Origin: Vicinamibacterales bacterium
Lineage (GTDB): Bacteria > Acidobacteriota > Vicinamibacteria > Vicinamibacterales > 2-12-FULL-66-21
Length of the DNA: 34,924 nt
Assembly (NCBI GenBank): GCA_046594705.1
Contig: JBKJRJ010000396.1
Span: forward strand, 1-34,924
Direction: 5' to 3'
This document shows positions 1 through 28,300 of the stretch, one piece after another; position 1 is the stretch's first letter, and the number at the start of each line of letters is the position of its first letter. The notes below the pieces were generated by a model. The model was not told the DNA's origin and did no database searches. It worked only from the letters and a program-made list of their open reading frames with translations. Both the position numbers and the translations under genes were made by a program.

Positions 1-1214
1 AGCATGCCGTCCCTGACGACCTTGTCGTAGAGCGCCGTGCCCGGGTAGGGGACCGCCGGATAGAAGTTCGCGAAGTCAGGATTGAGCTCGATCGCGTATT
101 CGATGGTGTGCTCGATGGTCGCGGGCGTCTCGCCGGGGTAGCCGAGGATGAAGAACGCAAAGGACCGGATCCCGGCCTCGCGCATGTTGTTGAGCGCGGC
201 CTGGATCTTCACCCGCTCGAGCCTCTTCACCATGTCCTTGCGGATTTCCTCGGACTCGGTCTCGATGCCCATCGCCAGCATCCAGCAGCCGGACTTGCGC
301 AGGCGGTGCACGAACGCGGGATCGGTGAGGTTGTCGGCGCGGGCGTTGCCGAACCACTGGATCGGCAGGTTCCTGGCAATCAGCTCGTCGCAGAACGCCG
401 TGAAGGTCTTGACGTTGAGCGTGACGGTGTCGCCCCAGAGGTAGAAGAAGTCGACACCGAACTCGCGGTAGCTGCGTTCGATCTCGTCAACCAGCGCCTT
501 CGGGCTGCGCTCGCGGAATTTATGCCCCTGGTGGATCGGCGCGACGCAGAAATCGCACGAATACGGGCAGCCGCGGCTGGTCTCGACGATGACATACGGC
601 CGATTCACGAGCGGCAGCGAGTACAACGACCGCGGCACGAGGTCCCACGCCGGATACGGCATCGTGGCAAACCCCGCGTATGACCCTTTCGCCGTGTGCG
701 CGACGATGGTGCCGGCTCGGCGCCAGGTGAGGCTCGGAACCGCGTGCAGGTGATCGATCGAATCCAGCAGCGCGAGTTCCAGCGCGCCGTCCTCGGGCTC
801 GCCGACGAACATGCCATCGACGTCCGGCGCGCGCAGCATCGACGCCTGCGGGGTGGTGGAGGCGTGCGGCCCGAAGCAGAACATCGGCGCGCCGAAACGC
901 TTCTTGAGTTTCGCGATTTCGACGACGTCCACGTCGAGCGTAGGGGTGGTGCTGGGGAAGAGGATGAGCGTGGGCCTGAAGCCCTCGCGATCGAGCCGCC
1001 CGATCAGGTCGTCCACGCTTTTCCGCTCGGCGGTGAGATCGACCAGGCGGACAGCGCAGCCGGCGTCGCGGAGCAGTGACGCGAGCAGCGCGAGTGTGTA
1101 GGGAGGCTTGGTCGTGCCCAGCACTTCCTCGCGCTCCTGGCAGCGCCCCTGGCGCGTAAAGGCGATGCCGTTGACGAGCGGCGGGTTGACGAGGAGGGTG
1201 CGCTGGCCGATCAC
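1..1214 (-). CDS. B12-binding-domain radical SAM enzyme (class B type), C-terminus beyond the window edge
   Basis: Absent from the ORF track because it has no in-window stop. Hand translation from GTG (1214-1212) gives VIGQRTLLVNPPLVNGIAFTRQGRC...LILFPSTTPTLDVDVVEIAKLKKRFGAPMFCFGPHAS...YVIVETSRGCPYSCDFCVAP...MGIETESEEIRKDMVKR...FFILGYPGET. This shows an N-terminal B12-binding-like domain followed by the CxxxCxxC cluster motif (CPYSCDFC). The GTGA start overlaps the stop of the upstream gene at 1211-1214. Confidence 0.8.
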   Translation of the reverse strand, partial: MIGQRTLLVNPPLVNGIAFTRQGRCQEREEVLGTTKPPYTLALLASLLRDAGCAVRLVDLTAERKSVDDLIGRLDREGFRPTLILFPSTTPTLDVDVVEIAKLKKRFGAPMFCFGPHASTTPQASMLRAPDVDGMFVGEPEDGALELALLDSIDHLHAVPSLTWRRAGTIVAHTAKGSYAGFATMPYPAWDLVPRSLYSLPLVNRPYVIVETSRGCPYSCDFCVAPIHQGHKFRERSPKALVDEIERSYREFGVDFFYLWGDTVTLNVKTFTAFCDELIARNLPIQWFGNARADNLTDPAFVHRLRKSGCWMLAMGIETESEEIRKDMVKRLERVKIQAALNNMREAGIRSFAFFILGYPGETPATIEHTIEYAIELNPDFANFYPAVPYPGTALYDKVVRDGM

Positions 1215-2440
1215 GTGTGCACGACCGTCACGGGAATGGCGCGGCGCCGCGGCAGGTCGGCGGTGGCGACGGCCGGCACGGGCGAGAGTTCGACTTTGCA
1301 GCACCGCCGGCACACCGGGAAGATGCCGTGTTCGAGCAGGCGACGCCGCAGCTCGACGTAACGTTCGCCGTTCCAGACCTGCTCGAGCGTGGACTCCGTG
1401 AGGTCGCCGACTTCGACCCGGATGAACGGGCAGAACACGACCTTGCCGGAAAACGACACGCGCGCGTGCAGGAAGGGATAGAGGCAGCGGCCCTCCAGCT
1501 TCGTCCCGGGCGTGTAGTAGCTGTCCATCAGCTGGGTGTGCACCTTGGGGCGGAAGTCGAACAGGATGTTGCGGTCCTTGCACTTCTGCGCCAGCGCCGT
1601 GACCTTCCGGCGCACCTGCTCCACGTCCAGTCCCGGATCCCGGGTGACGAACGTGGCGATCACGGAGGGATCGGTCGCGCCGATCATCTTCACCGTCTCG
1701 GCCACTTCCTCCGGCGTGCTGAACATCAGGTGGTTCAGGCCGATGGCGTCCACCCCGAGCTGTTCCGCCACGTCGACCATCTGGTCGAGTGCCTCGAGGC
1801 TCTCGTGCGCGACGGTGGTGTTGATGCTCACGCGCAGCGGTGCGCCCTTGCGTTTGGCCGCGCTCTGCAGGCGGCGGAGCCCTTCCGTGGTCCGCTCGAA
1901 GGTGCCCTGCAGCCCGCGCGCCGCGTCGTGCAGTTCTTTCGGGCCGTCCACCGACACGCTGATGTGTTTGAGGAAGCCCCTGGCCGCGAGCTCGGCCAGC
2001 GCCTCGGCGCGTTCTTCCGTGATGATCGTGCCGTTGGTGGTGAGATAACCGGCCGCGTAGCCCTTCTCGCGGAAGAGATCGAGCACGGACATGATGTCCT
2101 TGCGCATGAAGATCTCGCCGCCGGTCAGGCTGATCTGGAAGTCCTTCTGCGCGGGGAACGCGTTCGACAAGGCCTCGAGCGTCAGCTCCTGCCGCCATTC
2201 CCCTTCGAGGTTGAGCAGGTCGCCCACGTAGCAGAACTCGCAGTGCAGGTTGCACCGCATCGTGGCTTCGTAGACCGCGCCCATCGGCAGGCGGTCGGCG
2301 CGGCCGGTGGCCTCTTTGAGGAAGCGCTGGATGCGTCCCTCGTAGCGATGCCGGCGGAACCGCGCCCACGCGTGCCGGGCCAGCGGCATCGACCGGGCCG
2401 TTGTCTTCAGGCGCTCGCGCAGTTTACGAACCAGGACCAT
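1211..2440 (-). CDS. radical SAM enzyme with reduced SPASM/twitch-type C-terminal domain
   Basis: 409 aa ORF. CNLHCEFC is the CxxxCxxC motif. The C-terminus has C-x12-G-x4-C (CLYPFLHARVSFSGKVVFC) followed by CRRCC. ATG at 2440 is preceded by GGCGGA and overlaps the stop of the upstream gene by 17 nt. Confidence 0.85.
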   Translation of the reverse strand: MVLVRKLRERLKTTARSMPLARHAWARFRRHRYEGRIQRFLKEATGRADRLPMGAVYEATMRCNLHCEFCYVGDLLNLEGEWRQELTLEALSNAFPAQKDFQISLTGGEIFMRKDIMSVLDLFREKGYAAGYLTTNGTIITEERAEALAELAARGFLKHISVSVDGPKELHDAARGLQGTFERTTEGLRRLQSAAKRKGAPLRVSINTTVAHESLEALDQMVDVAEQLGVDAIGLNHLMFSTPEEVAETVKMIGATDPSVIATFVTRDPGLDVEQVRRKVTALAQKCKDRNILFDFRPKVHTQLMDSYYTPGTKLEGRCLYPFLHARVSFSGKVVFCPFIRVEVGDLTESTLEQVWNGERYVELRRRLLEHGIFPVCRRCCKVELSPVPAVATADLPRRRAIPVTVVHT

Positions 2441-4208
2441 CTATCCGCCAGATTTCCACGACCGGACCGGGGCGCTCGAGCGTCGCCGCGATCCGGGCAT
2501 CGCTGTTGTGCAGGAAGGGCTCAGCCGCGGGGGTCTTGTCGCCGGCGGCGTGTGAATACGGTGAAAACACGGCAATACGCCGGCCCTTTCCGGCCAGGGC
2601 CGTCAGGAGCGTCATCATTGCTGGGGCCGCGTCATTGTACCGTTTCAAGACCAGGAACGCCACGTGTTCCCGCCGGAGCGCGGCGAGCGGATCGGCAACG
2701 CCGAGCTGTTCATACGGCAGGTAGAGCTTGTCGACGTCCATGCCCCGGCCCAGATAGATCAGGCGGTAAGCGGGGGCGGGATACGGGTCGCGCGCGATCT
2801 GCAGCCGGGTCTTGGTCGGCAGCTCGCGCCCCGAGCGGGCCACCGCTTCTTCCAGCACAGCGGCCGTTGGCTCCAGCGGCACCGAGTACGGCTGGGTCAG
2901 GATGGTGGCCCCCGACGGGATGTGGCTGTGGATGTAGTGGAGTGCCAGCGTGCGCGTGTCGGTCTGTCGGATGAAGGCGCCGGTCCGCAGGCACTCGAGC
3001 CCCGCGACCGCAAATGCCGTGACGAACAGGACCTGGGCCGCGAGGCGCTGCCGCTGCCACAGCCACGCCACCGCGATGGCGGCGAGGATCGCCATAAACG
3101 GGGCGAGCGGCACGAGGTAGCGGCTGGCCGGAAAGGTGCCGGCGATAAAGAGCAGGAACGGTACCGCGAAGGCGAGCAGCCAGGACGCGCGAAGCGGATC
3201 CTTCCGGAGGGCGATCACGAGTCCGGCCAGGCCCAGCAGCGCCGAGGGCAGGCCCACCGTGTCGAACAGCAGCAGCGTCGCGTAGCGCGCGGCGCTGGCC
3301 ACGTAGCCGAGACGCTCGACCGCCCGGTCGACCACGATCTGCCGGTTGGCGGCGATGTCGCGCAGCGCCGTGCCGGGCTCCACCAGGAGGAAGGGAGAGA
3401 GCAGAAAGAACACCGCCGCGCTCACCGCCGCCGCCATCGCCACGCGCCGGACCACGTCGCGTCCGTCGCGGGCTCCGCGCGCCGCCGACCAGGCCAGCGG
3501 GAGGGCCAGGAAGATGGCGTAATAGTGCGTGGAGAACGCCGCGCCGGTGATCGCCGCGGCGCAGAGTAGTGGTCCTTCCGGCTGAAGGCGGAAACTCCGG
3601 ACTGCCCCCTCAGGCCCTCCACCGACCTTGTCCCAGAGCCGCGCATACGCCAGGTACGCCAGCATGATCAGGAACGTCACCGGCACGTCGTGCTTCACGT
3701 AGTGGGAGTTCAGCACGTGCAGCGGCGCGACCGCCAGCAGCAGGGCGGCCAGCACACCCACGCGCGGCGACCACAGGCGCGACCCGAGGATTCCGGTGGC
3801 CACGACCGTTCCGGCGCCGAGCAGCGCCGTCAGCAGCCGTCCCGCCACGAAGACGCGCGTCGGATCGAGAAAGAACTCCCGCTGGAACGCACCGAACGAC
3901 GCCACCGACCGGGTGGCCACCGCGGCAAGAGCGGTGATGCCCTGCCAGGCGAACAGCGCGTAGAAATAGAACGTCGGGTAGAGGAAGTTGTGCGGATTGA
4001 AGTCCCATTTCGCAAAGGCCAGCGTGCGCGACATGATGGCCACTTCGTCGGGGTTGTAGACCGCCGGCAGGCCGTAACGCAGCCCGATCAGCCGCAGCGC
4101 CAGCGCCACGGCGAATATCAGCCACAGACCAACACGGAACGACACGGATCTTCTCTGTGTTTGTCGGTGTTGGTCCGTGGCGGAAGGGCCGTGGTTGTCT
4201 GTGGCCAT
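2424..4208 (-). CDS. GT-C fold membrane glycosyltransferase (GT39/ArnT/PMT_2-like) with a C-terminal soluble domain
   Basis: 594 aa. Many hydrophobic spans. The acidic motif YNPDE lies in the first predicted external loop after TM1, as in ArnT/PMT-type enzymes. A soluble tail of about 170 aa follows. A TAATG 1-nt overlap links it to the upstream flippase gene. Confidence 0.75.
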   Translation of the reverse strand: MATDNHGPSATDQHRQTQRRSVSFRVGLWLIFAVALALRLIGLRYGLPAVYNPDEVAIMSRTLAFAKWDFNPHNFLYPTFYFYALFAWQGITALAAVATRSVASFGAFQREFFLDPTRVFVAGRLLTALLGAGTVVATGILGSRLWSPRVGVLAALLLAVAPLHVLNSHYVKHDVPVTFLIMLAYLAYARLWDKVGGGPEGAVRSFRLQPEGPLLCAAAITGAAFSTHYYAIFLALPLAWSAARGARDGRDVVRRVAMAAAVSAAVFFLLSPFLLVEPGTALRDIAANRQIVVDRAVERLGYVASAARYATLLLFDTVGLPSALLGLAGLVIALRKDPLRASWLLAFAVPFLLFIAGTFPASRYLVPLAPFMAILAAIAVAWLWQRQRLAAQVLFVTAFAVAGLECLRTGAFIRQTDTRTLALHYIHSHIPSGATILTQPYSVPLEPTAAVLEEAVARSGRELPTKTRLQIARDPYPAPAYRLIYLGRGMDVDKLYLPYEQLGVADPLAALRREHVAFLVLKRYNDAAPAMMTLLTALAGKGRRIAVFSPYSHAAGDKTPAAEPFLHNSDARIAATLERPGPVVEIWRIDGPGS

Positions 4209-5794
4209 TACTCCGGCCTTCCGAAGTCGGTGGCGACGATTTCGCCGGCCCGCTCAGTACTATCGGGCGCGGCCGCAGTGGTCGCGACCGGCGCGCTGCG
4301 GCGGCGGATGGACCCCAGGCGGCGCAGTTCGTCGGCGTGGAAAAAGCGCGTCACCACCAGCAGGCCGCCAAACACCACGATCACGGTGATGCCGCGGAGG
4401 ACGAGGTCGGGCAACGGCGCGATGGTGGAACGAGGATCGACCGACAGCTCGATGGAGGGCACCAGCCGCGCCGCGATGTACGCCGCGAGCCCCGCCAGGC
4501 AGACCCGGACGATCCGGCCCCACTCGTACGCGATCGGGTAGCAACGCTGCGACAAGACGTAGCCCAGCGCTGCCTGCACCGCGTAGGCGGCGCCGTTGGC
4601 CCACGCCGCACCCACGATCCCGTAGCGGGGGATCAGCAGGAGATTCAATCCGATGTTGGTCGTCGCCGCGGTGATCGTCGCGAGCGGATAGTACTGCGTG
4701 CGTTTCGTGATGTTCAGGCCGATCGAGGTCAGCAGGTAGACGCCCTGGAGGAAGACTCCGATCGCCGTCCAGGTGATGACGGTGGCGACGTCGTTCCAGC
4801 GCGGGTCGTCGGGCGCCAGGAGGCGCCCGTGGGTCATCGCCTCGGCGGCCTGACGGCCGATCGCCGACAGACCGGCCGTCAGCAGCGCGAGCACCGCGAT
4901 CCCATACGTCGTCACGGTGCGGAACACCCGGGGCGCGTCGGGCTCGCGAATGGCGGCGTAGTAGAACGGCGCCCATGCCGATTCGAACGCGCTGAGGAAC
5001 AGCTTCTGCGTCAAGCCGAACGACACCGCCATCGAGTAGATCCCGACAGTCTGCAGGGTGCCGTAGATGGTGAGCAGGAACTTGTCGCCGACCGCGATGA
5101 CCTGCTGCGCCGCGGCATGGGGCACGCGCGGCAGCCCGAAGGCCAGCGCGTCCCGCAGCACCGTGGCGGAAAACATCGACCGGATGAGCGGCGCAAACCA
5201 GCGCGCCAGGAGCGACAGCATGACCAGGGTGACGACGATGTCCGCGAGAAACAAGCCCGTCACGCCGAGGCCGAGCGACATCACGAACACCAGGCGGAGC
5301 GCGATCGTCAGCGCCGCGCGCACCAGCGTCATCAGGCTGAACGTCACTGTCCGCCGTTCCATCCGGAGCACGTGGAAGGGGATGAAGGTGAAGCCGATGC
5401 CGAACGTGTTCAGCAGCATCAGCCGCAGGGCGGCCGTGTGGTGCTGGCTGCCGAGGAACAGCTCCCCCAGCCGCGGCGCCGCCAGCATCAGGATGGTCAC
5501 GAAGGCACCGTTGATGGCCAGCAGGAAGAAGAAGATCGTGGAGGCCAGCCGGCGCCGCGCCGCGTCGTCCGGGCAGTCGTAGAACAACCGCATGAACGAG
5601 CCATCGAGCCCGAACCGGAAAACGATCTTGGCGATCACTTCCATCGCGCCGAGCACGCCGATGACGCCGTAATCCTCGGCGTTGAAATAGGTGACGTAGA
5701 CGCCGAGCAGGAGGAAGTTGACGATCGAGACCGCGACGTCGCCGAGTCCGTAGACGGTGACGTTCTTCGAGAGCTCGCGGATTTTCAGGAACAC
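4208..5794 (-). CDS. Wzx-like oligosaccharide/polysaccharide flippase (MOP superfamily)
   Basis: 528 aa polytopic protein with the typical Wzx-like N-terminus (LSKNVTVYGLGDV...) and many TM spans. The start codon is GTG at 5794-5792, since the track M is a GTG. It has a hydrophilic C-terminal extension. Confidence 0.8.
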   Translation of the reverse strand: MFLKIRELSKNVTVYGLGDVAVSIVNFLLLGVYVTYFNAEDYGVIGVLGAMEVIAKIVFRFGLDGSFMRLFYDCPDDAARRRLASTIFFFLLAINGAFVTILMLAAPRLGELFLGSQHHTAALRLMLLNTFGIGFTFIPFHVLRMERRTVTFSLMTLVRAALTIALRLVFVMSLGLGVTGLFLADIVVTLVMLSLLARWFAPLIRSMFSATVLRDALAFGLPRVPHAAAQQVIAVGDKFLLTIYGTLQTVGIYSMAVSFGLTQKLFLSAFESAWAPFYYAAIREPDAPRVFRTVTTYGIAVLALLTAGLSAIGRQAAEAMTHGRLLAPDDPRWNDVATVITWTAIGVFLQGVYLLTSIGLNITKRTQYYPLATITAATTNIGLNLLLIPRYGIVGAAWANGAAYAVQAALGYVLSQRCYPIAYEWGRIVRVCLAGLAAYIAARLVPSIELSVDPRSTIAPLPDLVLRGITVIVVFGGLLVVTRFFHADELRRLGSIRRRSAPVATTAAAPDSTERAGEIVATDFGRPE

Positions 5795-5835
5795 GAGCGG
5801 GGGGTCCTGACGGGGTCACTCGGCAATGTCGTGGG

Positions 5836-6549
5836 TCAGCCTTGCGGCTTGCGGAAGGTCAGCAGGTTCAGGAAGCACCACCCGGGCACGGGCAGCCATC
5901 GCGTCAGCGCGCGGTGCAGCGGCGCGAGCGCCCGCGGATGTCGGCGCACGAGGTGCGTGAGGACCGGAACCGTCGGGAAGATGCCGTGGCGCCCGACCAG
6001 CGAGAACCCGGCCCGCCGCCCGAGCTGCAGGTACTCGGCGACCGGTCGATCCCCGGGATGCTTGTACTCGGAGGCGGTGCGGATCAACCGCCCGCGCAGC
6101 AGGAAGTGAATGCGGGACTGCAGGTGCGCGAGGTTCGGCACCGACACCAGCAGTTCGCCGCCGGGCCGCAACACGCGAAAGAGCTCGGCCAGTGCCCGCG
6201 GCTGTTCCGCGTAGGCCAGGTGCTCCAGCACATCGAGACAGAGCGTGCGGTCGAAGGATCCATCGGGGAAGGGCAGCGCCGTCACCGACCCGAGCGTGAC
6301 CCGCGCCGACGAATAGTTCGCGTCAACGCCCGTGATGTCGAGACGGCCGGCATACTCCTCCACCAGCACGCCTTCGCCGCATCCGGCATCCAGCACGCGC
6401 GACGCCGCCGGCAGCGCGTTCAGATAGCGGCGGACCGCATCGAGCTTGGCGAGGTAGGTCGGGTAATAGTCCCAGGAAGGATCGAGCGTGCGGTGATAGT
6501 CGCCGCGCGCCGCGTATTCGCCCTGGCGAACCATCTCGGGCGTGGGCAT
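5836..6549 (-). CDS. class I SAM-dependent methyltransferase
   Basis: 237 aa. Motif I is VLDAGCGEGVL. Downstream are LCLDVLEHL and LRPGGELLVSVPN, typical of Methyltransf_11/23-type enzymes. ATG at 6549. Confidence 0.85.
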   Translation of the reverse strand: MPTPEMVRQGEYAARGDYHRTLDPSWDYYPTYLAKLDAVRRYLNALPAASRVLDAGCGEGVLVEEYAGRLDITGVDANYSSARVTLGSVTALPFPDGSFDRTLCLDVLEHLAYAEQPRALAELFRVLRPGGELLVSVPNLAHLQSRIHFLLRGRLIRTASEYKHPGDRPVAEYLQLGRRAGFSLVGRHGIFPTVPVLTHLVRRHPRALAPLHRALTRWLPVPGWCFLNLLTFRKPQG

Positions 6550-6564: not shown

Positions 6565-6665
6565 CTAGGCCTTGGGCCTTTGGCCTTGGGCTTTGGGCTT
6601 TAGGCTTTAGGGAGCTGGTGGGTTTCAGGGCGCCCAAAGCCCAAAGCCCAAAGACTAAAGCCTAG
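6565..6665. repeat. long imperfect inverted repeat built from tandem heptamers (GGCYTTN x6 on the left, CCCAAAG-type x4 on the right)
   Basis: Left arm 6565-6597 is ctaggccttgggcctttggccttgggctttggg. Right arm 6633-6665 is cccaaagcccaaagcccaaagactaaagcctag. Hand alignment of the 33 positions gives 27 Watson-Crick pairs, 3 G-U pairs and 3 mismatches on the minus-strand RNA. The loop is 35 nt. Tandem heptamers span 6568-6609 and 6633-6660. The right arm contains the TAG stop (6662-6664) of the upstream gene. Confidence 0.85.
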
Positions 6666-7384
6666 ATTCCAGGCCCGCCGCCGCGGCCGCCGGTGCCGGG
6701 GGGACGGATGATCGGCTGGTACGGATTCGGGACGCCCCCGGGAACCTGCTGCGGCGGGACGGCGCCCGGACGCGGGAGCGTCAGCGGCGAGGTCTGACCG
6801 GTCACCGCCGGCTGTCCAGGCTGCGTCATCTGCGGCATCTGGGGCATCTGCATCTGCGGCATCTGGCCGGGCTGCTGCGGCGGCATGCCCGGGAACTGCC
6901 CGACCACGGGGTTTCCCTGCTGCAGCGGCATCACGACGTTGATCGGCTCGTCGCTCTCGTCGATCGGCTGCGGCGGCCGCTGGAAGGTCGGCGTCGGCCC
7001 CGAATTGCCGGCCGTCACCGCGGGGGCGCGGCTCGTCGGCATGATCGTGACCCGATCGTAGAAGGCCGCATTGGCCATGGGCACCGGCCGCGGGGCCGCG
7101 ATATATCCGCTCGCGGTGCGCAGGAGGATGTCGAGCGCGTCGCGCTCCGACGCGTTGATCAACTGCAGTGTGACTGACGGCCCGTTCATCTTGTCGGCAT
7201 TGACGATCTTCGTCTGGCCGACGCGCGCCCATTCCTGCAGGATCTGCCGCAGGGGCACGTTGTCGGCCATGATGGTCACCCGCCCGTCCTGCATCGTCAA
7301 TGTGAGCTCGCCGGCGGAGGCCGGCGCGGCAAGGCCGCCGGCCACGGCCGCGGCAAACGCGCAGCGAAGAAGGGTGTTTTTCAT
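6662..7384 (-). CDS. secreted protein: signal peptide, STN-like (secretin/TonB N-terminal) domain, S/T/P linker, P/Q/M-rich low-complexity tail
   Basis: Start re-called to ATG at 7384, with GGGAG 6 nt upstream. The product is 240 aa. MKNTLLRCAFAAAVAGGLAAPASA|GE looks like a Sec signal peptide. VTIMADNVPLRQILQEWARVGQTKIV...VTLQLINASERDALDILLRTASGY matches the STN pattern by eye. The tail reads GMPPQQPGQMPQMQMPQMPQMTQPGQP...GGRGGGPGI. Confidence 0.7.
   Translation of the reverse strand: MKNTLLRCAFAAAVAGGLAAPASAGELTLTMQDGRVTIMADNVPLRQILQEWARVGQTKIVNADKMNGPSVTLQLINASERDALDILLRTASGYIAAPRPVPMANAAFYDRVTIMPTSRAPAVTAGNSGPTPTFQRPPQPIDESDEPINVVMPLQQGNPVVGQFPGMPPQQPGQMPQMQMPQMPQMTQPGQPAVTGQTSPLTLPRPGAVPPQQVPGGVPNPYQPIIRPPGTGGRGGGPGI
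6827..6865 (-). repeat. in-frame imperfect tandem repeat (catctg units) encoding the (MPQ/MQ)n stretch
   Basis: catctg occurs at 6827, 6836, 6845, 6851 and 6860 on the plus strand. On the minus strand this reads cag atg ccg cag atg cag atg ccc cag atg ccg cag atg. Confidence 0.8.
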
Positions 7385-7392
7385 AGGGATCT

Positions 7393-7450
7393 CCCGCTTC
7401 AAAGTATACGCCGGTTCAGACGCCCGGAAGCGGGGGACAGTCGGCGTCTG
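7393..7450 (-). promoter_or_regulatory. candidate interleaved (H-type pseudoknot-like or alternative) 8-bp stems in the 99-nt spacer, touching the Shine-Dalgarno of the STN-protein gene
   Basis: Stem A pairs 7393-7400 (cccgcttc) with 7427-7434 (gaagcggg). Stem B pairs 7417-7424 (cagacgcc) with 7443-7450 (ggcgtctg). The arm order on the strand is A, B, A-prime, B-prime. On the mRNA the last arm, GAAGCGGG, runs into GGAG 6 nt before the AUG. Confidence 0.35.
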
Positions 7451-7483
7451 GCTGAGCCGACCCGCGGAGCATCCCACCGGCCG

Positions 7484-8431
7484 TCAGACCAGTTTCGTGA
7501 TCCACAACGGCGAGTCTTTCCTCGGCAGATCGCAGGCCCGGCAGATGTCCGGGCCCCCGCTCTCGAGGTGTTGGCGGCGGACATCCCGGAAGGGCTCGGA
7601 ATTCCAGACCTCGGCGATGGATTGGGAATTGAGATCGCCGAGGATTATTTTTCCGTCGAAATCTGCGCAGCACAACGAGACGCGGCCATCCCACAGCACG
7701 GTGAAGGTCAGCCACGGGCGGTAGCACGGGTAGTTGACGTCGGATTCGTGGTTGAGCGTACCAGCCCAGTTGTGGAGCTCGGTGATATGAATCTTGTCGG
7801 CCACGTTGCGCCAGTGCTCGATGAAGGCCTGCTCATCCGCGGAGTTGTTCTGCCGCACGAACGACAGGATGAGTTTGGGTCGACGCTTGCCGAGCTCGGC
7901 GCGGATGCGAACCAGGCGCTCGATGTTGGCGATCACCTTGTCGTAGTTCAGCCCGATGCGGGTTTCTTCGAAGACTTCCTTGCCGCCGGCGTCGACGCTG
8001 ATGTTGATCGCATCCAGGCCGGCTTCGATGATGCCGCGCGCCACCTTCTCGGTGATCAGCGAGCCGTTGCTGATCAGGCCGACTTCCTTGATGCCTTTGT
8101 CCTTGGCGTAGCGCACTTTCTCGGTGAGGTGGCGATCGAGAAACGCCTCGCCGTAGTTGTGCATGCGCACGTGCGTGATGTTGAGCGCCGCGCACTCGTC
8201 CACGACTTTCCTGAACAGGGCGACGCTCATCACCCCCTGGCGGCGGTGCATGTCGTCGCGCGGGCAGAACACGCACTTCGCGTTGCAGATGTTCGTGCTC
8301 TCGATCTGGACGATCTCGGGGAGGATAGGCGAGCGGTCGCGCCCGGTCGCGAGCAGCAGGTTCCGGATCGGCTTCGCCTGGCTGCGCAGCATCGATTCGG
8401 CGGCCCGGCGCGCGGTGGCTTTGAGCTTCAT
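7484..8431 (-). CDS. radical SAM enzyme with reduced SPASM/twitch-type C-terminal domain (paralogous architecture to 1211..2440)
   Basis: 315 aa. CNAKCVFC is the CxxxCxxC motif. C-x12-G-x4-C is present (CYRPWLTFTVLWDGRVSLCC), followed by CRAC. An ATGA overlap with the upstream SDR gene lies at 8428-8431. Confidence 0.85.
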   Translation of the reverse strand: MKLKATARRAAESMLRSQAKPIRNLLLATGRDRSPILPEIVQIESTNICNAKCVFCPRDDMHRRQGVMSVALFRKVVDECAALNITHVRMHNYGEAFLDRHLTEKVRYAKDKGIKEVGLISNGSLITEKVARGIIEAGLDAINISVDAGGKEVFEETRIGLNYDKVIANIERLVRIRAELGKRRPKLILSFVRQNNSADEQAFIEHWRNVADKIHITELHNWAGTLNHESDVNYPCYRPWLTFTVLWDGRVSLCCADFDGKIILGDLNSQSIAEVWNSEPFRDVRRQHLESGGPDICRACDLPRKDSPLWITKLV

Positions 8432-9390
8432 GCGGTCTGCAACGACGCGATCACCCGCGTCAGGATTTCGTCGAGCTCGACGGTCGGCTCGTAGCCGATC
8501 AGCGCCCGGATCTTGGCGATGTCGGGCACCCGGCGCGGCATGTCCTCGAAACCGGACTCGTAGGCCTGATCGTAGGGGATGGTGACGATTGTCGAGCTGC
8601 TGCCCGTCAGCTGCTTGATCCGCTGGGCCAGGTCGCGAATCGAGATTTCGTGACCGTTGCCGATATTGAAGACCTGGCCGACCGCGCGCGGTTCGTTGAT
8701 CAAGGCGACCACGGCCCTCACCACGTCCCCGACGTAGGTGAAGCTGCGCGACTGGGTGCCGTCCCCGAACACCGTGATCGGCTCGTTGGCGAGGGCCTGC
8801 CGTACGAAGTTCGGGACCACCATGCCGTACTGGCCGGTCTGGCGCGGGCCCACGGTGTTGAACAACCGCACGACGATGACGGGAAGCTTGCGCTCCTTCC
8901 AGTAGGCCAGCGCCAGGAACTCGTCGATCATCTTGCTGCAGGCGTAGGCCCAGCGGTGCTTGGAGGTCGGGCCGAGCACGAGATCGTCGTCCTCGCTGAA
9001 CGGCACCTTCGCGCTCTTGCCGTAGACCTCGGAGGTCGAGGCGATGAGCACCAGCTTTTTCTTCTTGTTGGCGACCTTGAGGACGACTTCGGTGCCGTGC
9101 ACGTTGGTCTCGATGGTGCGGACGGGCGACTCCACGATCAGCTTCACGCCGACCGCCGCCGCGAGGTGCGCGACCGTGTCGCAGCGGTCCACGAGTTCGG
9201 CGAGCAGCGGCTCGTTGGTGACGGTGTCGATGGTGTAATGGAACTTCGGGTTGGTCTTGAGATGCGCGATGTTGTCAATCGAACCCGTGGACAGATCATC
9301 GAGCACGTAGACATCGTCGCCCCGCGCGAGCAGGGCCTCGGCGAGATGCGAACCGACGAAGCCTGCCCCGCCCGTAATCAACACACGCAT
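8428..9390 (-). CDS. NAD-dependent epimerase/dehydratase (extended SDR; UDP-glucuronate decarboxylase/ArnA-C-terminal-like)
   Basis: Start re-called to ATG at 9390, preceded by agaggggg. The product is 320 aa. MRVLITGGAGFVGSHL carries the GxxGxxG motif. ASTSEVYG and YACSK give a canonical T/YxxxK triad. FGDGTQSRSFTYVGDVV resembles UXS-type enzymes. Confidence 0.85.
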   Translation of the reverse strand: MRVLITGGAGFVGSHLAEALLARGDDVYVLDDLSTGSIDNIAHLKTNPKFHYTIDTVTNEPLLAELVDRCDTVAHLAAAVGVKLIVESPVRTIETNVHGTEVVLKVANKKKKLVLIASTSEVYGKSAKVPFSEDDDLVLGPTSKHRWAYACSKMIDEFLALAYWKERKLPVIVVRLFNTVGPRQTGQYGMVVPNFVRQALANEPITVFGDGTQSRSFTYVGDVVRAVVALINEPRAVGQVFNIGNGHEISIRDLAQRIKQLTGSSSTIVTIPYDQAYESGFEDMPRRVPDIAKIRALIGYEPTVELDEILTRVIASLQTA

Positions 9391-9406
9391 CGTGATGGTT
9401 CCCCCT

Positions 9407-11212
9407 CTATCCCGGTCCGGAGCGCGCCAAGCCGAGAATCGCCTCGGCCGATCGGGCCGCAGCCTGCCCGTCATTATGAGCCGGATGCACGGCGCGGCTG
9501 TGGAGACTGCTGCGGAACTCCTGATTATACAGGACGTTGGCGAGGCCACCCCTGATTTCCTCCGGCGCCGGTCCCGCCCCGGCCATCCGCCCGGCCTCCA
9601 CGAAAGGCGTCAGGTTGTTCGGCAGGCCGATGACGAGCGACGGCACGCCGAAGGCCAGGGCGTCAATCGCCACGGTCGAGTTGATGGTGACGATGGCGTC
9701 GGCGGCGGCCAGCAGTGACGGGAGCGGCACATCTGCCGCCACGCGCACATTGCGGACGCCGGCGATGACGCTCGCGTAGACGCCCGGGACCTCGGCGGGA
9801 TGCGGCTTGATGACGAGCTGCACGTCGGGCATGCCGCGGACCGCATCGAGCAGCGCGGGCAGGAACGGCCGCGCCTCGCGCTCCTTCGCAGCCAACAGCA
9901 CGAGCGCACGCGGCGCCGTGGCGTCGTAGGCGGTGCGCACCCTAACCGTGTCCTCGGGCGTGACCGCGCGCATCGCGGCCGAGAGCTCGTCGAGGCGGGC
10001 GCTGCCCGTGACCGCGAGCGTGGACGCAGGATAGCGGCCCTTCGACAGGAGATGCTGCGCGGCGTGCTCGTCGAACAGCAGCGTCGCGGAAGGGCATGGG
10101 AAGCCGCGGTCGGATGGATTCGCGGGATCCGCGATCATTTCGTCGGCCTCGTGCCGGTAGTTGAGCCAGTGCCGGTAGATGAACCCATGCTGCAGGCCGG
10201 CGAGCGGCACGCCGCGCCGCCGGCACTCGAGCGCGAGCGCGCGACCCCATCCCCCCGCTTCCGCGTAGGTCACCGCCACCTCCGGCGCGAGGGCGTCGAG
10301 CGCCGCGGCGGCCTGGTCCATCGATCGGGCCGACCAGGGGAATTGCAGCAGCGCGATGCCGGCCAGCTGCTGGCGGACCAGCGGCCAGCAGTCGCAGCCG
10401 CGGATCACCGCGTGCGCGCGCAGCGCCGCGCTCTGCCACATGCCGCGGCGCGCGCGGTGCCGATCGCGGTAGACGGCGCGCGACCCGGCGAGCGCGGCCG
10501 CCGGCGCATAACGTTCGATCGGCACGATGGTGGTCCCGTCGCGCGCGACGATCGGATCCCACCAGCGGCGGGCGCGGAAGTTGCTGCGCGCGCCGATGCC
10601 GACATACCGCATGGCCGCCGCCGTCGCGCGGGTCTCGAGCGCGCGGAGCACGGGACCGATGTACGACTCGGCGCCGCCATCGGCGCCGTCGGCGCGCCAG
10701 AACGCGGTGTGCACGAACGCCGCGATTCGTCCCGGCCGCGCCGCCGCCGGGGCCGCGCGCAGCGTCGACAGCCGCGCCCCCACGGCGAGTGCCGTCGCCC
10801 GCGCCTCCATCCGCAGTAACGCGAGGCGCGGTGTGGCGGGCCAGCCGGGGCCGCTGTAGCGCACCTTGCGAGCGGCGGCCGCCTGGGCGACTACCCCGGG
10901 ATTGCTGCCGTCGACGTATCGAATCGTCAGCGGCCGTTCGCGTTCGACCAGCGCGTCGAAGGCGGCGATGGTGCGCAGGGCCTCGAGGATCACCCGCTCC
11001 TTGTGCAGATAGAGCTCGGCGAACCACCAGAGCGAGTCACCCCGGAAGGTGAAGCGGCGACGGAATGGGACGCCGTCCACCTCGAGGTGCCGCACCGCCT
11101 TGATCCACGCGTAGGCCTCGTCGTGCGCCTGTTCCTCGTGCTGGGGGTCGAGGTACGACCGCAGTGCCACCCGCCTCGGTCCTGAGCCCGAGTCGATGTC
11201 GAGCGTGATCAT
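9407..11212 (-). CDS. hypothetical protein with a C-terminal GT-B-like (TagF/KpsS-type) half; family unresolved
   Basis: Start re-called to ATG at 11212, in an ATGA overlap with the GT9 stop. The product is 601 aa starting MITLDIDSGSGPRR. The N-terminal part of the 757-aa track ORF is R/G/P-rich and overlaps the real GT9 frame. The C-terminal half has VQLVIKPHPAE...VTINSTVAIDALAFGVPSLVIG, reminiscent of the KxHP and nucleotide-sugar-binding region of TagF/capsule-type transferases. Confidence 0.55.
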   Translation of the reverse strand: MITLDIDSGSGPRRVALRSYLDPQHEEQAHDEAYAWIKAVRHLEVDGVPFRRRFTFRGDSLWWFAELYLHKERVILEALRTIAAFDALVERERPLTIRYVDGSNPGVVAQAAAARKVRYSGPGWPATPRLALLRMEARATALAVGARLSTLRAAPAAARPGRIAAFVHTAFWRADGADGGAESYIGPVLRALETRATAAAMRYVGIGARSNFRARRWWDPIVARDGTTIVPIERYAPAAALAGSRAVYRDRHRARRGMWQSAALRAHAVIRGCDCWPLVRQQLAGIALLQFPWSARSMDQAAAALDALAPEVAVTYAEAGGWGRALALECRRRGVPLAGLQHGFIYRHWLNYRHEADEMIADPANPSDRGFPCPSATLLFDEHAAQHLLSKGRYPASTLAVTGSARLDELSAAMRAVTPEDTVRVRTAYDATAPRALVLLAAKEREARPFLPALLDAVRGMPDVQLVIKPHPAEVPGVYASVIAGVRNVRVAADVPLPSLLAAADAIVTINSTVAIDALAFGVPSLVIGLPNNLTPFVEAGRMAGAGPAPEEIRGGLANVLYNQEFRSSLHSRAVHPAHNDGQAAARSAEAILGLARSGPG

Positions 11213-12378
11213 CGCGCCGCCCCGCCGCCGAGCGTCTCGTCGATCGCCGCGAGCACGTCGGCCGGGCTGATGCCCGACAGGCAATCCGGGGTGTGACCGA
11301 TGCAACGGGCCGGGGGCTGCCGGATGCGGTTGCACGGGCTGCACGGCAGATCGATGCGGACCACGACGTCGCGGGTGCCTTGCGGCGCATAGCGCCGCGG
11401 ATCGGACGGGCCGAACACCGCGACGACCGGCGTGCCGACCGCGTTCGCCAGGTGCATCGGCCCGGTGTCGCCGGTCACCAACAGGTCCAGCTGGGCGATC
11501 ACCGCGGCGGCCCGCAGGAGACCCGGGTCGCCGGAGAGATCCAGCACACGGTCTGGCGGCAGCGCCGCCAGGACGATCTCCACCTGCGCGCGATCGGCGG
11601 GCGTTCCGGTCAGCACGACCGCCGCCGATCGGTCGCGCACGAGGCACTCGGCGACCTCGCGGAAGCTGGTCTCGGGCCACTGCTTGATCGCGCGTCCGCC
11701 GCTGACGTGCATCCCCACTGTCAACCCGCCCGCGAAGCGCGCCAGCAGGCTGGTGGCATCGGCCCGGGCCTCCTCGGGTATCCGCAGCGCCCAGCGGGCG
11801 GGGGCCTCCGGCGCGCCTCCCATGGCGGCCTGCACCAGCCGCCTGGCGTTGTCGATGGTGTGCGCCGTCACGTCGTAGTCGAGCGCGAGGTCGAGCAGCG
11901 CGCCGCCGCCCCCGCTGGCGAAGCCTGCCGTGCGCCGCGCGCCGGCCGCCGCCATCGCGATGTTGGTCCTGATGTCTGGCTCGAAATTGATCGCCAGGTC
12001 GTAGCGGCGCGACCGCCAGCGCGCCGCCCGGCGCGCCAGCCCAAGCGGACTGAGACCCGCGCCGCCGCGGGCGAGCCAGTCCGCGTCCAGGATCTCGATG
12101 CCGTCCACCTCGGGGATGGCCGCCGCGATCTCGCGGTTCCAGCTGCCGACCGCCAGATCAATCGACGCCTCCGGGGCCAGCGCGCGCAACGCTGCCAGCG
12201 CCGGACCGGTCATCAGCAGGTCACCGATCCGCTCGAGGCGGAAACAGAGAATCCGTCGCGGCGGCGGGTGACCGGCCGCCGCGAACACCCGCCGCAGCGA
12301 CAGCGGCGCCAGCAGGATGTCCGCCGCGGTCACCAGCGCGCGCTCTCGCGGGTGTTCGATGTTCAGGCGTGCCGTCAT
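11209..12378 (-). CDS. GT9 family glycosyltransferase (heptosyltransferase-like)
   Basis: Start re-called to ATG at 12378, in an ATGA overlap with the upstream stop. The product is 389 aa. ILCFRLERIGDLLMTGPALAALR and LLVTGDTGPMHLANAVGTPVVAVFGPSDP are hallmark GT9 motifs. Confidence 0.8.
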   Translation of the reverse strand: MTARLNIEHPRERALVTAADILLAPLSLRRVFAAAGHPPPRRILCFRLERIGDLLMTGPALAALRALAPEASIDLAVGSWNREIAAAIPEVDGIEILDADWLARGGAGLSPLGLARRAARWRSRRYDLAINFEPDIRTNIAMAAAGARRTAGFASGGGGALLDLALDYDVTAHTIDNARRLVQAAMGGAPEAPARWALRIPEEARADATSLLARFAGGLTVGMHVSGGRAIKQWPETSFREVAECLVRDRSAAVVLTGTPADRAQVEIVLAALPPDRVLDLSGDPGLLRAAAVIAQLDLLVTGDTGPMHLANAVGTPVVAVFGPSDPRRYAPQGTRDVVVRIDLPCSPCNRIRQPPARCIGHTPDCLSGISPADVLAAIDETLGGGAAR

Positions 12379-14861
12379 CGCACCGCCACGCGATCCACCA
12401 TCACGCCGAGGTCCCGATCGTCGGAGGTGCCCAGCATCACCTGCGGGTTCCACGTCGATGTCCGCAGCGTCATGCGGACGGGTTCGCCCGCGGCGGCCGC
12501 GGCGGCTGCGAGGTCCGCGGGAATCGGCACGACATACTCGTTGAAGCCGGACGTCACACGCACGGTCGCCAGGATGCGGTCGCCGATGAGGACTGTGACG
12601 TCCGCCGCCGGTGCGGCCGAGGGACGGCCGCCGTCGTTCATCCAGATCGACAGCGAGCGGGAGCTGTCGCGCAGGCCATCGACCAGCACGAACGACTGCC
12701 GCTGCGACCACCGGAAAGTGCGCCCTCCGCTCGATTCCTTGGCATGGAAGCGGACGACGTTCAGGTCGTCGTTGATGCCGACGTCGAGATCGCCGGCGTC
12801 CCGGCGCGCGGCCGGCGGCCCGAACGCGTAGACGCTGTAATCGAATTCCTTTTGCCTGACGTAGCGGGGAAATGCGTTCCGCGCGGATTCATACTCCGGC
12901 ACCTGGAACCGATCGCTCGAGACCGGTGCGACACTCCAGCGAGACGACAGCAGGTCCGTGCCGCCGCCGCCGAGGAACAGCACCCGGCGGTAGTGGGCCC
13001 GCGCCTGATCCAGGAACGCCGCGAACATCACCTTGTCGGGCGCCGCATTCGACAGGACCAGCACGGCCCTGGCGTAGGTGTAGGCCAGCGGCAGCGCGAG
13101 CACGTGAACGTCGGAGCCCGCGTCCTTCGACTCGACGATCAGCAGGTCGTCGTCTCCCAGCTGCGCGGCGAGCGCCTCGAGCCGCGGGATGATGCCCGCG
13201 TATTCAACGTGCTCCACCACCGGGCGCGCGGCGCGCGCGTACTGGGTGGCGAGCAGCGCCAGGAAGACGACCCCGATCGGGCCCCGGATGGCCCGCGTGA
13301 ACAGCGACCGGCCGCGCACGCCGGTCAGCGCGGCCGCCGCGACCAGCAGCAGGCCGCCCGGCAGGATCATCGGCAGGAAGCGCCGCGACGCCCAGAAGTG
13401 CTCGGGGACAATGCGGATCTTGTAGAAGAAGAACAGCGAGAAGGCCGTCAGCGTGATGATGAACGCCGGATCGCGCCAGAACAACCTGCGCACGATCAGC
13501 ACGTAGCCCACCAGCGCGGCGATTAAGGCCGCTACGGTGAAGTAATACTGGCCGAAGGTGCGCAGCGCGAACGCATCGTAGTCCGTGAGCTTGCCGCCCG
13601 GCTGCCTGGCGGTGAGCGCGTAGAGGGCGAGCGCCACGACGACGACGCTGAGCACGGTGGGAAACAGCGCGACGATGCGCCCCGACCGGGCCGGCGAGCG
13701 GCGGCCGATCGCCAGCAGCGCCAGCAGTCCCGCGCCGCCCGCGCCGAGCGCGACGTACTGCCACCACGGCAGGTTGGCGATGAAGACGCGCGGCAGCTCG
13801 AAGTACTCACGCATGGGTCCCATCAGGTAGCCGAGGCACAGCGCGCATCCGGTCGCCAGCGGCACCCAGAACGTCCAGCGCACCCGATGGCCCGCCACCA
13901 ATCCGAGCGCAAGCGCCGCAATCACCGAGCCGACCGCGAGGACCGCGTCGAAGCGCAGAAAGAGCAGCAGTACCAGCAGCGTGCCGGCAACCGGCGCGAA
14001 GAACGGGTCGTCGTCAACGTGGGCCCGGGCGTTCGCGAGCAGCGCGCCGAACAGCATCGCCTGCATGACGATGTCGGCGTTCGGGTAGCGTGACCACCAG
14101 ACTTGGACAACGTTCAGCGCGAGGAGGGCGGCGGCCGCCGCCGCGGCCGGTCGGCCCAGCAGCCGGGCGCCGAGAAAATACACCGACAGCAGCCCCAGCA
14201 CACCCCAGAAGCCGAACACCCAGCGCGCGCCAGTGAGTCCGCGCAGGCCGTAGCCGATCGCGATCGACGCCGGGTAGACGTGCGGGAACTGGCTGACCAC
14301 CGCGCCGCTGTCGGGGTCGAGGATGTAGAAACCCATGAAGCGCGGCGCGACGTAGCGGGTGCGGTTCTTGTCACGTGGAAAGAACAGGTCACGCGCAAAA
14401 GCCGGGACCGCCGCGACCACCGGATCGTGGACGACGAGCGCGCCGCGCTGCGCGATCTGGATCCCTGAGTTGACGTAGACGCCGGGGTCTTTGCCGCCGA
14501 TGATGTATTCCGACGGCGGTACGAATCGCCACGCGCCCAGCAGCGCCAGGGCCAGCGGCAGGCAGAGGGCGAGGCCCGGACGTGGCGCCGTCGGGCCCAG
14601 CCGCAGATCGAAGCGAGCGAGCACCAGCAGCGCGCCCGCGATCAGCAGGTCGGCGATGACCAGACGCGTGAAGCTGTAGCGATGGAGCGCCGCGAGAGCC
14701 AGCACCAGCGAGAGCGAGATAGCCAGGCTGAGCACGACCGTCCAATAGGCCCGCTCCTCGGCGGGCAGGGCGGCGCGCCGCGCCCGGTCCGCGAAGGGTA
14801 TCCGGAAGAGCACCGCCCCGGGCAGCCAGGCGACGGCGAGAAGTTGGAGCAGCGCAATCAT
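12375..14861 (-). CDS. large polytopic membrane protein, GT-C-like putative glycosyltransferase/polymerase with a C-terminal soluble beta-rich domain
   Basis: 828 aa. More than 12 hydrophobic spans. The first large loop carries GGKDPGVYVNSG. A C-terminal domain of about 270 aa contains FRWSQRQSFVLV...DDRDLGVMVDRVAV. A TGATG 1-nt overlap links it to the MBOAT gene. Confidence 0.6.
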   Translation of the reverse strand: MIALLQLLAVAWLPGAVLFRIPFADRARRAALPAEERAYWTVVLSLAISLSLVLALAALHRYSFTRLVIADLLIAGALLVLARFDLRLGPTAPRPGLALCLPLALALLGAWRFVPPSEYIIGGKDPGVYVNSGIQIAQRGALVVHDPVVAAVPAFARDLFFPRDKNRTRYVAPRFMGFYILDPDSGAVVSQFPHVYPASIAIGYGLRGLTGARWVFGFWGVLGLLSVYFLGARLLGRPAAAAAAALLALNVVQVWWSRYPNADIVMQAMLFGALLANARAHVDDDPFFAPVAGTLLVLLLFLRFDAVLAVGSVIAALALGLVAGHRVRWTFWVPLATGCALCLGYLMGPMREYFELPRVFIANLPWWQYVALGAGGAGLLALLAIGRRSPARSGRIVALFPTVLSVVVVALALYALTARQPGGKLTDYDAFALRTFGQYYFTVAALIAALVGYVLIVRRLFWRDPAFIITLTAFSLFFFYKIRIVPEHFWASRRFLPMILPGGLLLVAAAALTGVRGRSLFTRAIRGPIGVVFLALLATQYARAARPVVEHVEYAGIIPRLEALAAQLGDDDLLIVESKDAGSDVHVLALPLAYTYARAVLVLSNAAPDKVMFAAFLDQARAHYRRVLFLGGGGTDLLSSRWSVAPVSSDRFQVPEYESARNAFPRYVRQKEFDYSVYAFGPPAARRDAGDLDVGINDDLNVVRFHAKESSGGRTFRWSQRQSFVLVDGLRDSSRSLSIWMNDGGRPSAAPAADVTVLIGDRILATVRVTSGFNEYVVPIPADLAAAAAAAGEPVRMTLRTSTWNPQVMLGTSDDRDLGVMVDRVAVR

Positions 14862-16288: not shown

Positions 16289-16291
16289 CGG

Positions 16292-17374: not shown

Positions 17375-17396
17375 CACGGCGCGGAACTCGCGGGAC

Positions 17397-26402: not shown

Positions 26403-26507
26403 TTACCGGGTGGGAAGGCCGACGCTCAGCATCTCGGAACTGCACATGCTAGCACGCGTTTTGGGGCGAAAATAAAGCGTAAGTCTAGGAGGCTCTGCAT
26501 TTTGCCG

Positions 26508-26536: not shown

Positions 26537-26540
26537 CGCG

Positions 26541-26565: not shown

Positions 26566-26575
26566 GTAAATAGTC

Positions 26576-27016: not shown

Positions 27017-27018
27017 TC

Positions 27019-28295: not shown

Positions 28296-28300
28296 CCCGG

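Follow-up and report, generated by a model that had tools for sequence, protein, structure and literature searches.

What do radical S-adenosylmethionine (SAM) enzymes do in a glycan locus, where they are encoded in one overlapping chain with a flippase and a membrane glycosyltransferase? The question is raised by a stretch of 34,924 nucleotides from a member of the Vicinamibacteria (Acidobacteriota), the whole of which is here called the window (contig JBKJRJ010000396.1, positions 1 to 34,924; G+C content 65–75 %). Its first 5,794 positions carry, on the minus strand and in the order of transcription, genes for a Wzx-type flippase, a glycosyltransferase (GT) of the GT-C fold, a twitch-like radical SAM protein (twitch1) and a radical SAM protein with a B12-binding-like domain (the B12-like enzyme). 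Vicinamibacteria rank with the most abundant bacteria of soils, yet to our knowledge their envelope glycans have not been described. A link between the radical chemistry of this locus and a glycan is well supported by context. The more specific reading developed here, which we hold to be about evenly balanced, is that the genes form a cassette in which radical enzymes tailor a sugar, linked to a lipid or to a nucleotide, before GT-C enzymes deliver it. An initial annotation of the window had likewise proposed a radical tailoring step coupled to a glycan, and this much stands, the enzymes being co-conserved with the glycan locus in hundreds of Vicinamibacteria species and orthologues of the B12-like enzyme having GT and GT-C neighbours in other lineages; its view that the enzymes are hard-wired to the flippase and GT-C, and its lean towards C-methylation, are not supported by the comparison.

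A six-frame listing of the open reading frames (ORFs), with their translations, places the four genes of the chain at 1–1214, 1211–2440, 2424–4208 and 4208–5794, followed on the same strand by a fifth at 5836–6549. The TAA stop of the Wzx gene and the ATG of the GT-C gene share one base at 4208 (TAATG; GAGTAATGGCC / GAGTAATGG), the GT-C stop lies inside the twitch1 gene within a 17-nt overlap (2424–2440), and the GTG start of the B12-like gene overlaps the TGA stop of the twitch1 gene at 1211–1214 (GTGA; CACGTGATC). The four genes and their three junctions are thus exactly as initially annotated, as is the presence just upstream of a class I SAM-dependent methyltransferase (5836–6549, 237 aa; Pfam Methyltransf_11, 60.9 bits). 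The gene set is real and translationally coupled. Such overlaps between start and stop codons are commonplace in operons, and it is the conservation of the arrangement that makes it more than chance, since the two radical SAM genes are adjacent, with the B12-like gene directly downstream of the twitch1 gene, in 70 of 77 loci from distinct species.

These loci come from a scan of one genome per GTDB species, in which 508 stretches were found to encode a relative of twitch1. The best 80 of the 508 are 67–93 % identical and are nearly all labelled as Vicinamibacterales, Vicinamibacteria or Acidobacteriota. Close relatives of twitch1 are very numerous, the top 120 sequence clusters lying at 83–94 % identity. 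A 4.4-kb contig labelled Gemmatimonadaceae (L005, JANNKK010000005.1), whose twitch, GT-C and B12-like proteins match those of the window at 93, 77 and 80 % identity, is probably a mis-binned Vicinamibacteria contig rather than an instance of transfer. Gene order was surveyed by tblastn of all window proteins against 81 non-redundant loci, and each count is given over the loci with enough flanking sequence. The radical SAM pair is accompanied by the methyltransferase in 54 of 56 loci, whilst a second twitch-like radical SAM protein (twitch2) and a short-chain dehydrogenase/reductase (SDR) are each present in 50 of 56. The GT-C gene adjoins the twitch1 gene in 51 of 74. Upstream of the radical SAM pair, the order Wzx, GT-C, twitch that is seen in the window is found in 31 of 67 loci; Wzx and twitch without a GT-C account for a further 11, GT-C and twitch with the Wzx gene elsewhere in the locus for 12, GT-C and twitch with no Wzx in the locus for two, and other orders for the remaining 11. 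The class that has no GT-C includes two of the closest relatives (L001 and L003, with twitch1 87–92 % identical), and L004, with a twitch1 within the same range, shows the same layout, its upstream sequence being too short for the 67-locus count.

Sequence divergence tells the same genes apart. The median identity to the window is 77 % for twitch1, 75 % for the B12-like enzyme, 76 % for the methyltransferase and 82 % for both twitch2 and the SDR. It is 49 % for the GT-C, 55 % for Wzx, 57 % for a GT9 protein, 51 % for a GT-B-like protein (9407–11680) and 44 % for a secreted protein that is conserved in position and evolves fast. This split into two groups indicates that the conserved core consists of the cytoplasmic enzymes and not of the GT-C and flippase pair. 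The GT-C at 2424–4208 is a facultative member of the unit, and the description of the radical SAM enzymes as hard-wired into a GT-C/flippase unit is not supported, given the 11 loci without a GT-C, the 12 with Wzx elsewhere and the lack of any Wzx in the outgroup loci described below.

The B12-like gene, which starts with GTG at 1214, runs off the window, so that only the N-terminal 404 aa are encoded there. The missing C-terminus, which the initial annotation had proposed to recover from flanking sequence, is supplied by the relatives, where the full-length enzyme has 495–504 aa (L001:11230–12717, L004:4149–5663). The relatives also show what lies beyond. In L001 the B12-like gene is followed in order by a convergent small GT2 (254 aa), a 527-aa polytopic protein with a weak match to PMT_2, a 567-aa PMT protein, a UbiE-like methyltransferase, a GNAT protein, a polysaccharide-deacetylase-like protein and a GT4. 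Amongst the 51 loci with at least 8.5 kb past the B12-like gene, the GT2 is found downstream in 44, the PMT protein in 40, the methyltransferase in 36, the GNAT protein in 33 and the deacetylase-like protein in 32. As the locus of the relatives runs on for at least 9 kb past this gene, the chain is not the distal end of the locus, contrary to its initial description as a distal module. In L004, a 92–93 % identical relative, a PhD/YefM–PIN toxin–antitoxin pair (5719–6500) lies between the B12-like gene and the convergent GT2.

A search of other lineages, with a 46 %-identical representative (P0123) as the query, gave 28 homologues from outside the Vicinamibacteria that are 44–55 % identical to the B12-like enzyme of the window. 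Some are named by source as Ca. Brocadia, Ca. Wunengus, Ca. Poribacteria or a Flavobacteria-labelled bin, and others come from further, unassigned lineages. The 23 outgroup loci, drawn from the encoding contigs and a metagenome scan and with orthologues at 44–56 % identity, reduce to 17 non-redundant groups, 16 of which have enough upstream sequence. A small GT2 is encoded immediately upstream of the B12-like gene in 13 of these 16 groups, often with an overlap of 4–8 nt, and its orthologue (38 % identity, E 1e-66) in Vicinamibacteria is the GT2 encoded past the B12-like gene. The cross-phylum partner of the B12-like enzyme is this small GT2, which lies outside the window. Proteins of the GT-C type (PMT_2, DUF2079 or GT-C_AftD; we take DUF2079 to belong to the GT-C clan) occur in 12 of the 17 groups, and no Wzx homologue was found in any of the 17. 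Extra radical SAM proteins of the B12 or SPASM/twitch type are common in the outgroup loci, as are class I methyltransferases. In the Brocadia-type order, the GT2 and the B12-like enzyme are followed by a methyltransferase and a radical SAM protein of 343–348 aa, which carries C-x12-G-x4-C...CxxC at its C-terminus and shares 25 % identity with twitch1.

The best NCBIfam matches of the partner GT2 are AglJ, ArnC, the halobacterial dolichyl-phosphate hexose transferase, PpgS and PgfS, with AglJ or ArnC as the top match for most. All are below the family cutoffs (42–68 bits against 325–529 for the GT2 at L001:12728–13492 and the outgroup GT2s), and the protein can be said, from its sequence, only to resemble the polyprenyl-phosphate sugar synthases.

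Several outgroup cassettes are more elaborate. L091, and likewise L095 and L103, hold up to six genes for B12-domain radical SAM proteins within some 15 kb, as well as two small GT2s, PMT_2 and DUF2079 proteins, a GT4 and a Wzy_C/TPR protein; such numbers of radical SAM proteins in a single cassette suggest multi-step radical tailoring. In L092 (5438–10008), a GT2, a methyltransferase, a Polysacc_deac_1 protein and a FemAB/GNAT-like protein directly precede the GT2–B12 pair, a set that echoes the methyltransferase, GNAT and deacetylase genes downstream of the B12-like gene in Vicinamibacteria. The O-glycan of the anammox S-layer is heavily methylated and contains an unidentified 174-Da unit (PMC5088730), which is mentioned as a circumstantial lead and is not used as evidence here.

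The B12-like enzyme belongs to the radical SAM superfamily, as judged by its C216x3C220x2C223 motif and a PF04055 score of 76.3 bits against a cutoff of 29.5. Its annotation as a B12-binding radical SAM protein is sound in this respect, but the B12-binding half is borderline, with PF02310 at 33.1 bits against a cutoff of 32.1 and weak or absent in several orthologues. The protein stays below every NCBIfam cutoff. Identity with BchE (TIGR02026), a cyclase, was rejected at 162 bits against a cutoff of 481, there being no photosynthesis genes in the locus. Further scores are 96.8 bits for AprD4 (NF033070, cutoff 500), 121 for ApyD, 111 for PhpK and 109 for BzaD, the last of which was also rejected as an identity. 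HpnJ (TIGR03471) reaches 151 bits with the window fragment, and up to 211 bits with orthologues, against a cutoff of 577.6. Identity with HpnJ is excluded in any case, since neither shc and the hpn genes nor hopanoids are found in the subdivision 6 Acidobacteria (PMC5462960). A phmmer search over 1.84 billion representatives found a single full-length representative in the protein's own 50 % cluster, the next full-length relatives at 40–46 % identity and then a large cloud at 33–37 %. The relatives at 40–46 % fail every NCBIfam cutoff as well, again with HpnJ and BchE as the best matches.

Amongst proteins of known structure, the closest sequence is that of AprD4 (81.7 bits with the single sequence, 102.8 with the profile), followed by MgmA, OxsB and TokK. 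An AlphaFold2 model of an 81 %-identical orthologue, made from an alignment of 45 sequences (pLDDT 87.5), has AprD4 (PDB 6fd2) as its best fold match, with template modelling scores of 0.75/0.81 over the full length, and then TsrM, MgmA, OxsB, CysS and TokK. AprD4 and the B12-like enzyme share an N-terminal Rossmann-like domain that is followed by the radical SAM core, and AprD4 acts on a sugar. The two are only 23 % identical, AprD4 belongs to an aminoglycoside (apramycin) cluster rather than an envelope glycan locus, and no AprD3-like reductase partner was identified for the window enzyme. The B12 radical SAM methylases (TsrM, MgmA/QCMT, TokK, CysS and GenK-type) have the same domain order and appear at fold ranks 3–17 and amongst the profile matches, but they score below AprD4, and the NCBIfam methylase families give 62–111 bits against cutoffs of 282–600. 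AprD4 is a sugar 1,2-diol dehydratase that works without cobalamin binding (PMC12931638), whilst HpnJ is proposed to contract the ring of a lipid-linked glucosamine and Cds to act likewise for calditol (PMC13459092). The rule that a class B radical SAM enzyme is a C-methylase does not transfer safely to this protein, because its nearest neighbours by sequence and fold (AprD4, HpnJ and BchE) are not methylases, the B12 methylases rank lower and its B12-domain score stands at the threshold; the initial lean towards C-methylation is for these reasons not specifically supported.

The two twitch-like proteins, twitch1 (also termed SPASM1; 1211–2440, 409 aa; Pfam Radical_SAM 67.5 bits, SPASM 42 bits) and twitch2 (SPASM2; 7484–8431, minus strand, 315 aa; Radical_SAM 72 bits, SPASM 61.8 bits), are distant paralogues (23 % identity, E 8e-13). 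Membership of twitch1 in the radical SAM superfamily follows from its Cx3Cx2C motif and its PF04055 score (cutoff 29.5). Both share the cysteine pattern reported initially, with C63x3C67x2C70, C319-x12-G-x4-C337 and C377xxC380 in twitch1 and C49x3C53x2C56, C236-x12-G-x4-C254 and C297xxC300 in twitch2. Their labelling as SPASM-type is correct for the first half of that motif (C-x12-G-x4-C) and for the CxxC, but the seven-cysteine motif CX9-15GX4C...CX2CX5CX3C...C occurs in neither, as Cx2Cx5Cx3C is absent. The four-cysteine arrangement C-x17-C...CxxC is the pattern of the BtrN twitch domain, with its single auxiliary cluster, and on this pattern the C-terminal domain of both enzymes is best called twitch-like. 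Twitch1 shares this pattern with BtrN, the twitch dehydrogenase of butirosin formation, the substrate of which is carbohydrate-like. In a profile comparison, residues 311–387 align to the BtrN twitch region, although the similarity is marginal (E 0.004) and twitch1, at 409 aa, is extended by about 55 aa at its N-terminus and carries a long insert that separates the core from the twitch domain.

Other matches of twitch1 in the PDB are weak, the best being SkfB at 36–37 bits (35.8 by profile). No NCBIfam cutoff is reached by twitch1, the best scores being those of AhbD (93 bits, cutoff 500) and NirJ (84 bits), with the rest lower; the cofactor and housekeeping identities considered (AhbD, NirJ, MoaA, PqqE, MftC and the tungsten-cofactor oxidoreductase maturase) were all rejected as below cutoff. 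With NCBIfam scores this far below the cutoffs, the radical SAM enzymes stand outside the housekeeping and cofactor families. An AlphaFold2 model of twitch1 was left out of the fold search, as its alignment was shallow (83–94 % identity) and its pLDDT was 54. The radical SAM proteins are taken to be cytoplasmic because they have no predicted transmembrane (TM) segments. The start of the twitch2 gene is overlapped by 4 nt by the stop of the SDR gene (8428–9549, minus strand), which encodes a nucleotide diphosphate (NDP)-sugar dehydratase/epimerase/decarboxylase-type protein (GDP_Man_Dehyd 200.8 bits, Epimerase 196 bits); LegB-like (179 bits) and UDP-xylose-synthase-like (169 bits) families are its NCBIfam matches, both below cutoff.

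The membrane proteins of the chain are assigned with similar caution. The product of 2424–4208 (594 aa) has about nine hydrophobic segments followed by a soluble C-terminal domain, an acidic 'PDE' motif after the first TM segment and a Pfam PMT match of 32 bits (cutoff 22.7), with PMT_2 at 22.3 bits lying below its cutoff of 26.1. Multiple spans, acidic motif and PMT match together mark it as a predicted GT-C/PMT-like (GT39/GT83-type) enzyme. The product of 4208–5794 (528 aa), with at least nine hydrophobic segments and matches to Polysacc_synt_3 (PF13440, 32.1 bits, cutoff 23), Polysacc_synt (PF01943, 29.8 bits, cutoff 28.2) and HfsF (54 bits), is a Wzx-type flippase of the MOP superfamily.

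How might these proteins work together? GT-C enzymes use polyprenyl-phosphate-linked donors. In the mechanism proposed, the partner GT2 would load a common sugar onto polyprenyl phosphate, and the radical SAM enzymes and the methyltransferase would remodel the sugar, with hydrogen-atom abstraction leading to dehydration, rearrangement, oxidation or methylation. The sugar may be remodelled when already linked to the lipid or at the stage of its nucleotide precursor. GT-C-type transferases would then use the modified lipid-linked sugar at the periplasmic face, whilst Wzx more probably flips the main undecaprenyl-diphosphate-linked oligosaccharide than the tailored monosaccharide. A fuller version, in which the same pathway extends across phyla, the radical SAM enzymes remodel a sugar that is already on polyprenyl phosphate and GT-C enzymes install the sugar of this donor on the cell envelope or on secreted proteins, is rather doubtful. 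In this version the remodelling could consist of C-methylation, of a deoxygenation as by AprD4 or of a contraction of the ring, in the manner of HpnJ and Cds, that yields a carbocyclic unit.

The closest logical analogues of such a pathway are the ArnC/ArnD/ArnT and HpnI/HpnK/HpnJ systems, although their family cutoffs are not reached. The ArnC/ArnD/ArnE-F/ArnT and GtrB/GtrA/GtrC pathways, and PpgS with its GT-C partner, likewise combine a small GT2, a tailoring step and a GT-C transferase, and the deacetylase-like gene in the relatives is a further likeness to the Arn-type pathways. Unlike these, the tailoring would here be performed by radical SAM enzymes and a methyltransferase, and the flippase is of the Wzx type instead of ArnE/F or GtrA. 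The HpnI/HpnK/HpnJ system and Cds follow a similar gene logic, with a GT2, a deacetylase-like protein and a B12-domain radical SAM enzyme that act on a lipid-linked hexosamine (PMC13459092). They differ in that the presumed lipid is here polyprenyl phosphate and that GT-C transferases are present.

A number of points weigh against the mechanism proposed. Two outgroup loci have no GT-C within 10 kb, L086 having none on either side and L090 none upstream, with its contig ending just after the B12-like gene, and in close relatives the GT-C of the window is dispensable. Moreover, this GT-C has no BLAST-level similarity to the outgroup GT-Cs, the sole exception being a match to one PMT_2 protein (24 % identity over 155 aa), which means that the association holds at the level of enzyme class and not of orthology. 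We know of no Wzx flippase that flips polyprenyl-monophosphate sugars. The order of the steps, the substrate and the type of reaction are all inferred, and so is the polyprenyl-phosphate acceptor, because every family score of the GT2 and radical SAM proteins is below cutoff. Finally, the operon of the SDR and twitch2 fits a classical nucleotide-sugar pathway at least as well. In that pathway, a possible though doubtful alternative, the SDR, the radical SAM enzymes and the methyltransferase would convert a UDP-, GDP- or dTDP-hexose into an unusual deoxy, branched or epimerised sugar for Leloir transferases, and the linkage to GT-C, GT2 and Wzx genes would be operon housekeeping. The 4-nt overlap of two highly conserved genes, SDR and twitch2, speaks for it, as do the variability of GT-C and Wzx and the presence in L088 of RmlA, RmlC and RmlD-like genes and a C-methyltransferase near the B12-like orthologue. 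The characterised sugar radical SAM enzymes DesII, BtrN and AprD4 also act on soluble substrates. However, the minimal Brocadia-type cassettes contain no nucleotide-sugar genes, and neither the tight GT2–B12 pairing across phyla nor the enrichment of GT-C-type proteins is explained in this way.

The other alternatives move away from an envelope glycan altogether. Production of a glycosylated small molecule, be it a metabolite or a cofactor, along the lines of mycofactocin or the arsenosugars would accommodate the absence of a nearby GT-C from L086 (Ca. Brocadia pituitae) and the weak matches of the GT2 to MftF and to the arsenosugar-associated GT2 family TIGR04283. These matches are below cutoff, though, and weaker than or equal to those of the polyprenyl-phosphate sugar synthases, and a co-oriented glycan locus of at least 26 kb in Vicinamibacteria, together with the GT-C-type proteins of 12 of the 17 outgroup groups, makes a metabolite unlikely. 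Maturation of a peptide or protein, whether a ribosomally synthesised and post-translationally modified peptide (RiPP) or a secreted glycoprotein such as the product of 6662–7477, is suggested by the fact that most characterised SPASM/twitch enzymes act on peptides, by SkfB as the best PDB sequence match of twitch1 and by the secreted protein encoded in the unit. We regard it as quite unlikely, since a precursor-peptide gene would not fit into the gaps between the genes (41, 112 and 6 nt), the unit encodes neither a RiPP recognition element nor a protease or transporter, the RiPP maturase families score far below their cutoffs and the secreted protein has a median identity of 44 % against 75–82 % for the radical SAM proteins. 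A lipid is a further candidate substrate, in which case the polyprenyl carrier or the membrane lipids might be methylated or cross-linked. Acidobacteria have unusual lipids, and HpnJ, HpnR and TIGR04072, a family of lipid B12 radical SAM proteins, give weak matches, with HpnJ-, HpnR- or ladderane-type enzymes amongst the distant relatives. Such a role is very unlikely, as every score falls far short of its cutoff, subdivision 6 has neither shc nor hpn genes (PMC5462960), the locus has no fatty-acid or isoprenoid genes and the conserved pairing is with a glycosyltransferase.

A description of the cassette was not found in the searchable full-text literature, and no curated family matched it. 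On gene content, what appears familiar is a glycan locus with the logic of lipid-linked-sugar decoration, and what appears new is an uncharacterised radical tailoring within it. The combination of a GT2, a B12-domain radical SAM protein, twitch radical SAM proteins and a methyltransferase beside GT-C proteins recurs in at least two phyla. If the enzymes do act on a lipid-linked sugar, they would bring new chemistry to decoration pathways of the ArnC/ArnT type, and a concrete function would be given to a large uncharacterised branch of the BchE/HpnJ/AprD4-like radical SAM proteins.

The glycan locus as a whole, defined from the ORF listing and family profiles, occupies the minus strand from 1 to 26402 as one co-oriented chain that diverges from the dcw cluster. 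Towards higher coordinates from the methyltransferase, the first genes are those of the secreted protein (6662–7477, with M32 at 7384 as the likely start) and of twitch2, followed by the overlapping SDR gene. The secreted protein has a Sec signal peptide ending in ...PASA|GE, a secretin-N/STN-like domain and a Pro/Gln-rich tail; it matches no Pfam family and has only weak matches to the N-terminal regions of PilQ and HofQ. It could be a periplasmic partner or a target of glycosylation. Next come the protein with a C-terminal GT-B-like region (9407–11680, longest ORF 757 aa) and the GT9 (11209–12711, longest ORF 500 aa). These two longest ORFs overlap by about 470 nt, and 8428–9549 also overlaps 9407–11680; as the relatives call the three genes at 601, 388 and 320 aa, the window ORFs are over-extended at their 5' ends in this high-GC DNA.

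The rest of the minus-strand chain encodes an 828-aa PMT_2-like protein, an MBOAT protein (14861–16288), an SGNH/AlgX-like protein (16292–17431), a DegT aminotransferase, a second SDR, four GT2s, two GT4s and a TMEM260/PMT-like membrane protein (22193–23608), the gene of which overlaps that of a small GT2 (21486–22196) by 4 nt. On the plus strand, the dcw cluster starts at 27019 with rsmH (27019–27906), ftsI (28301–30394), murE (30391–31938), murF (31942–33357) and mraY, which extends to about 34448. Of the minus-strand ORFs between 26426 and 30391, at least those of 26971–30391 were rejected as genes of the locus, being antisense artefacts of the plus-strand rsmH and ftsI, and 26426–26938 has no family match. 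No Rfam family or tRNA was found in scans of the window. The MBOAT and SGNH/AlgX-like pair (14861–17431) is of the AlgI/AlgX or PatA/PatB type, which implies O-acylation of an exported glycan, and in two relatives (L059 and L073) the pair is relocated beside the Wzx, GT-C and twitch genes. The membrane protein at 22193–23608 and its GT2 resemble the outgroup pair of a 456-aa PMT_2 protein and a GT2 that precedes the B12-like gene, with 21 % identity (E 7e-16) for the membrane protein and 30 % (E 5e-30) for the GT2.

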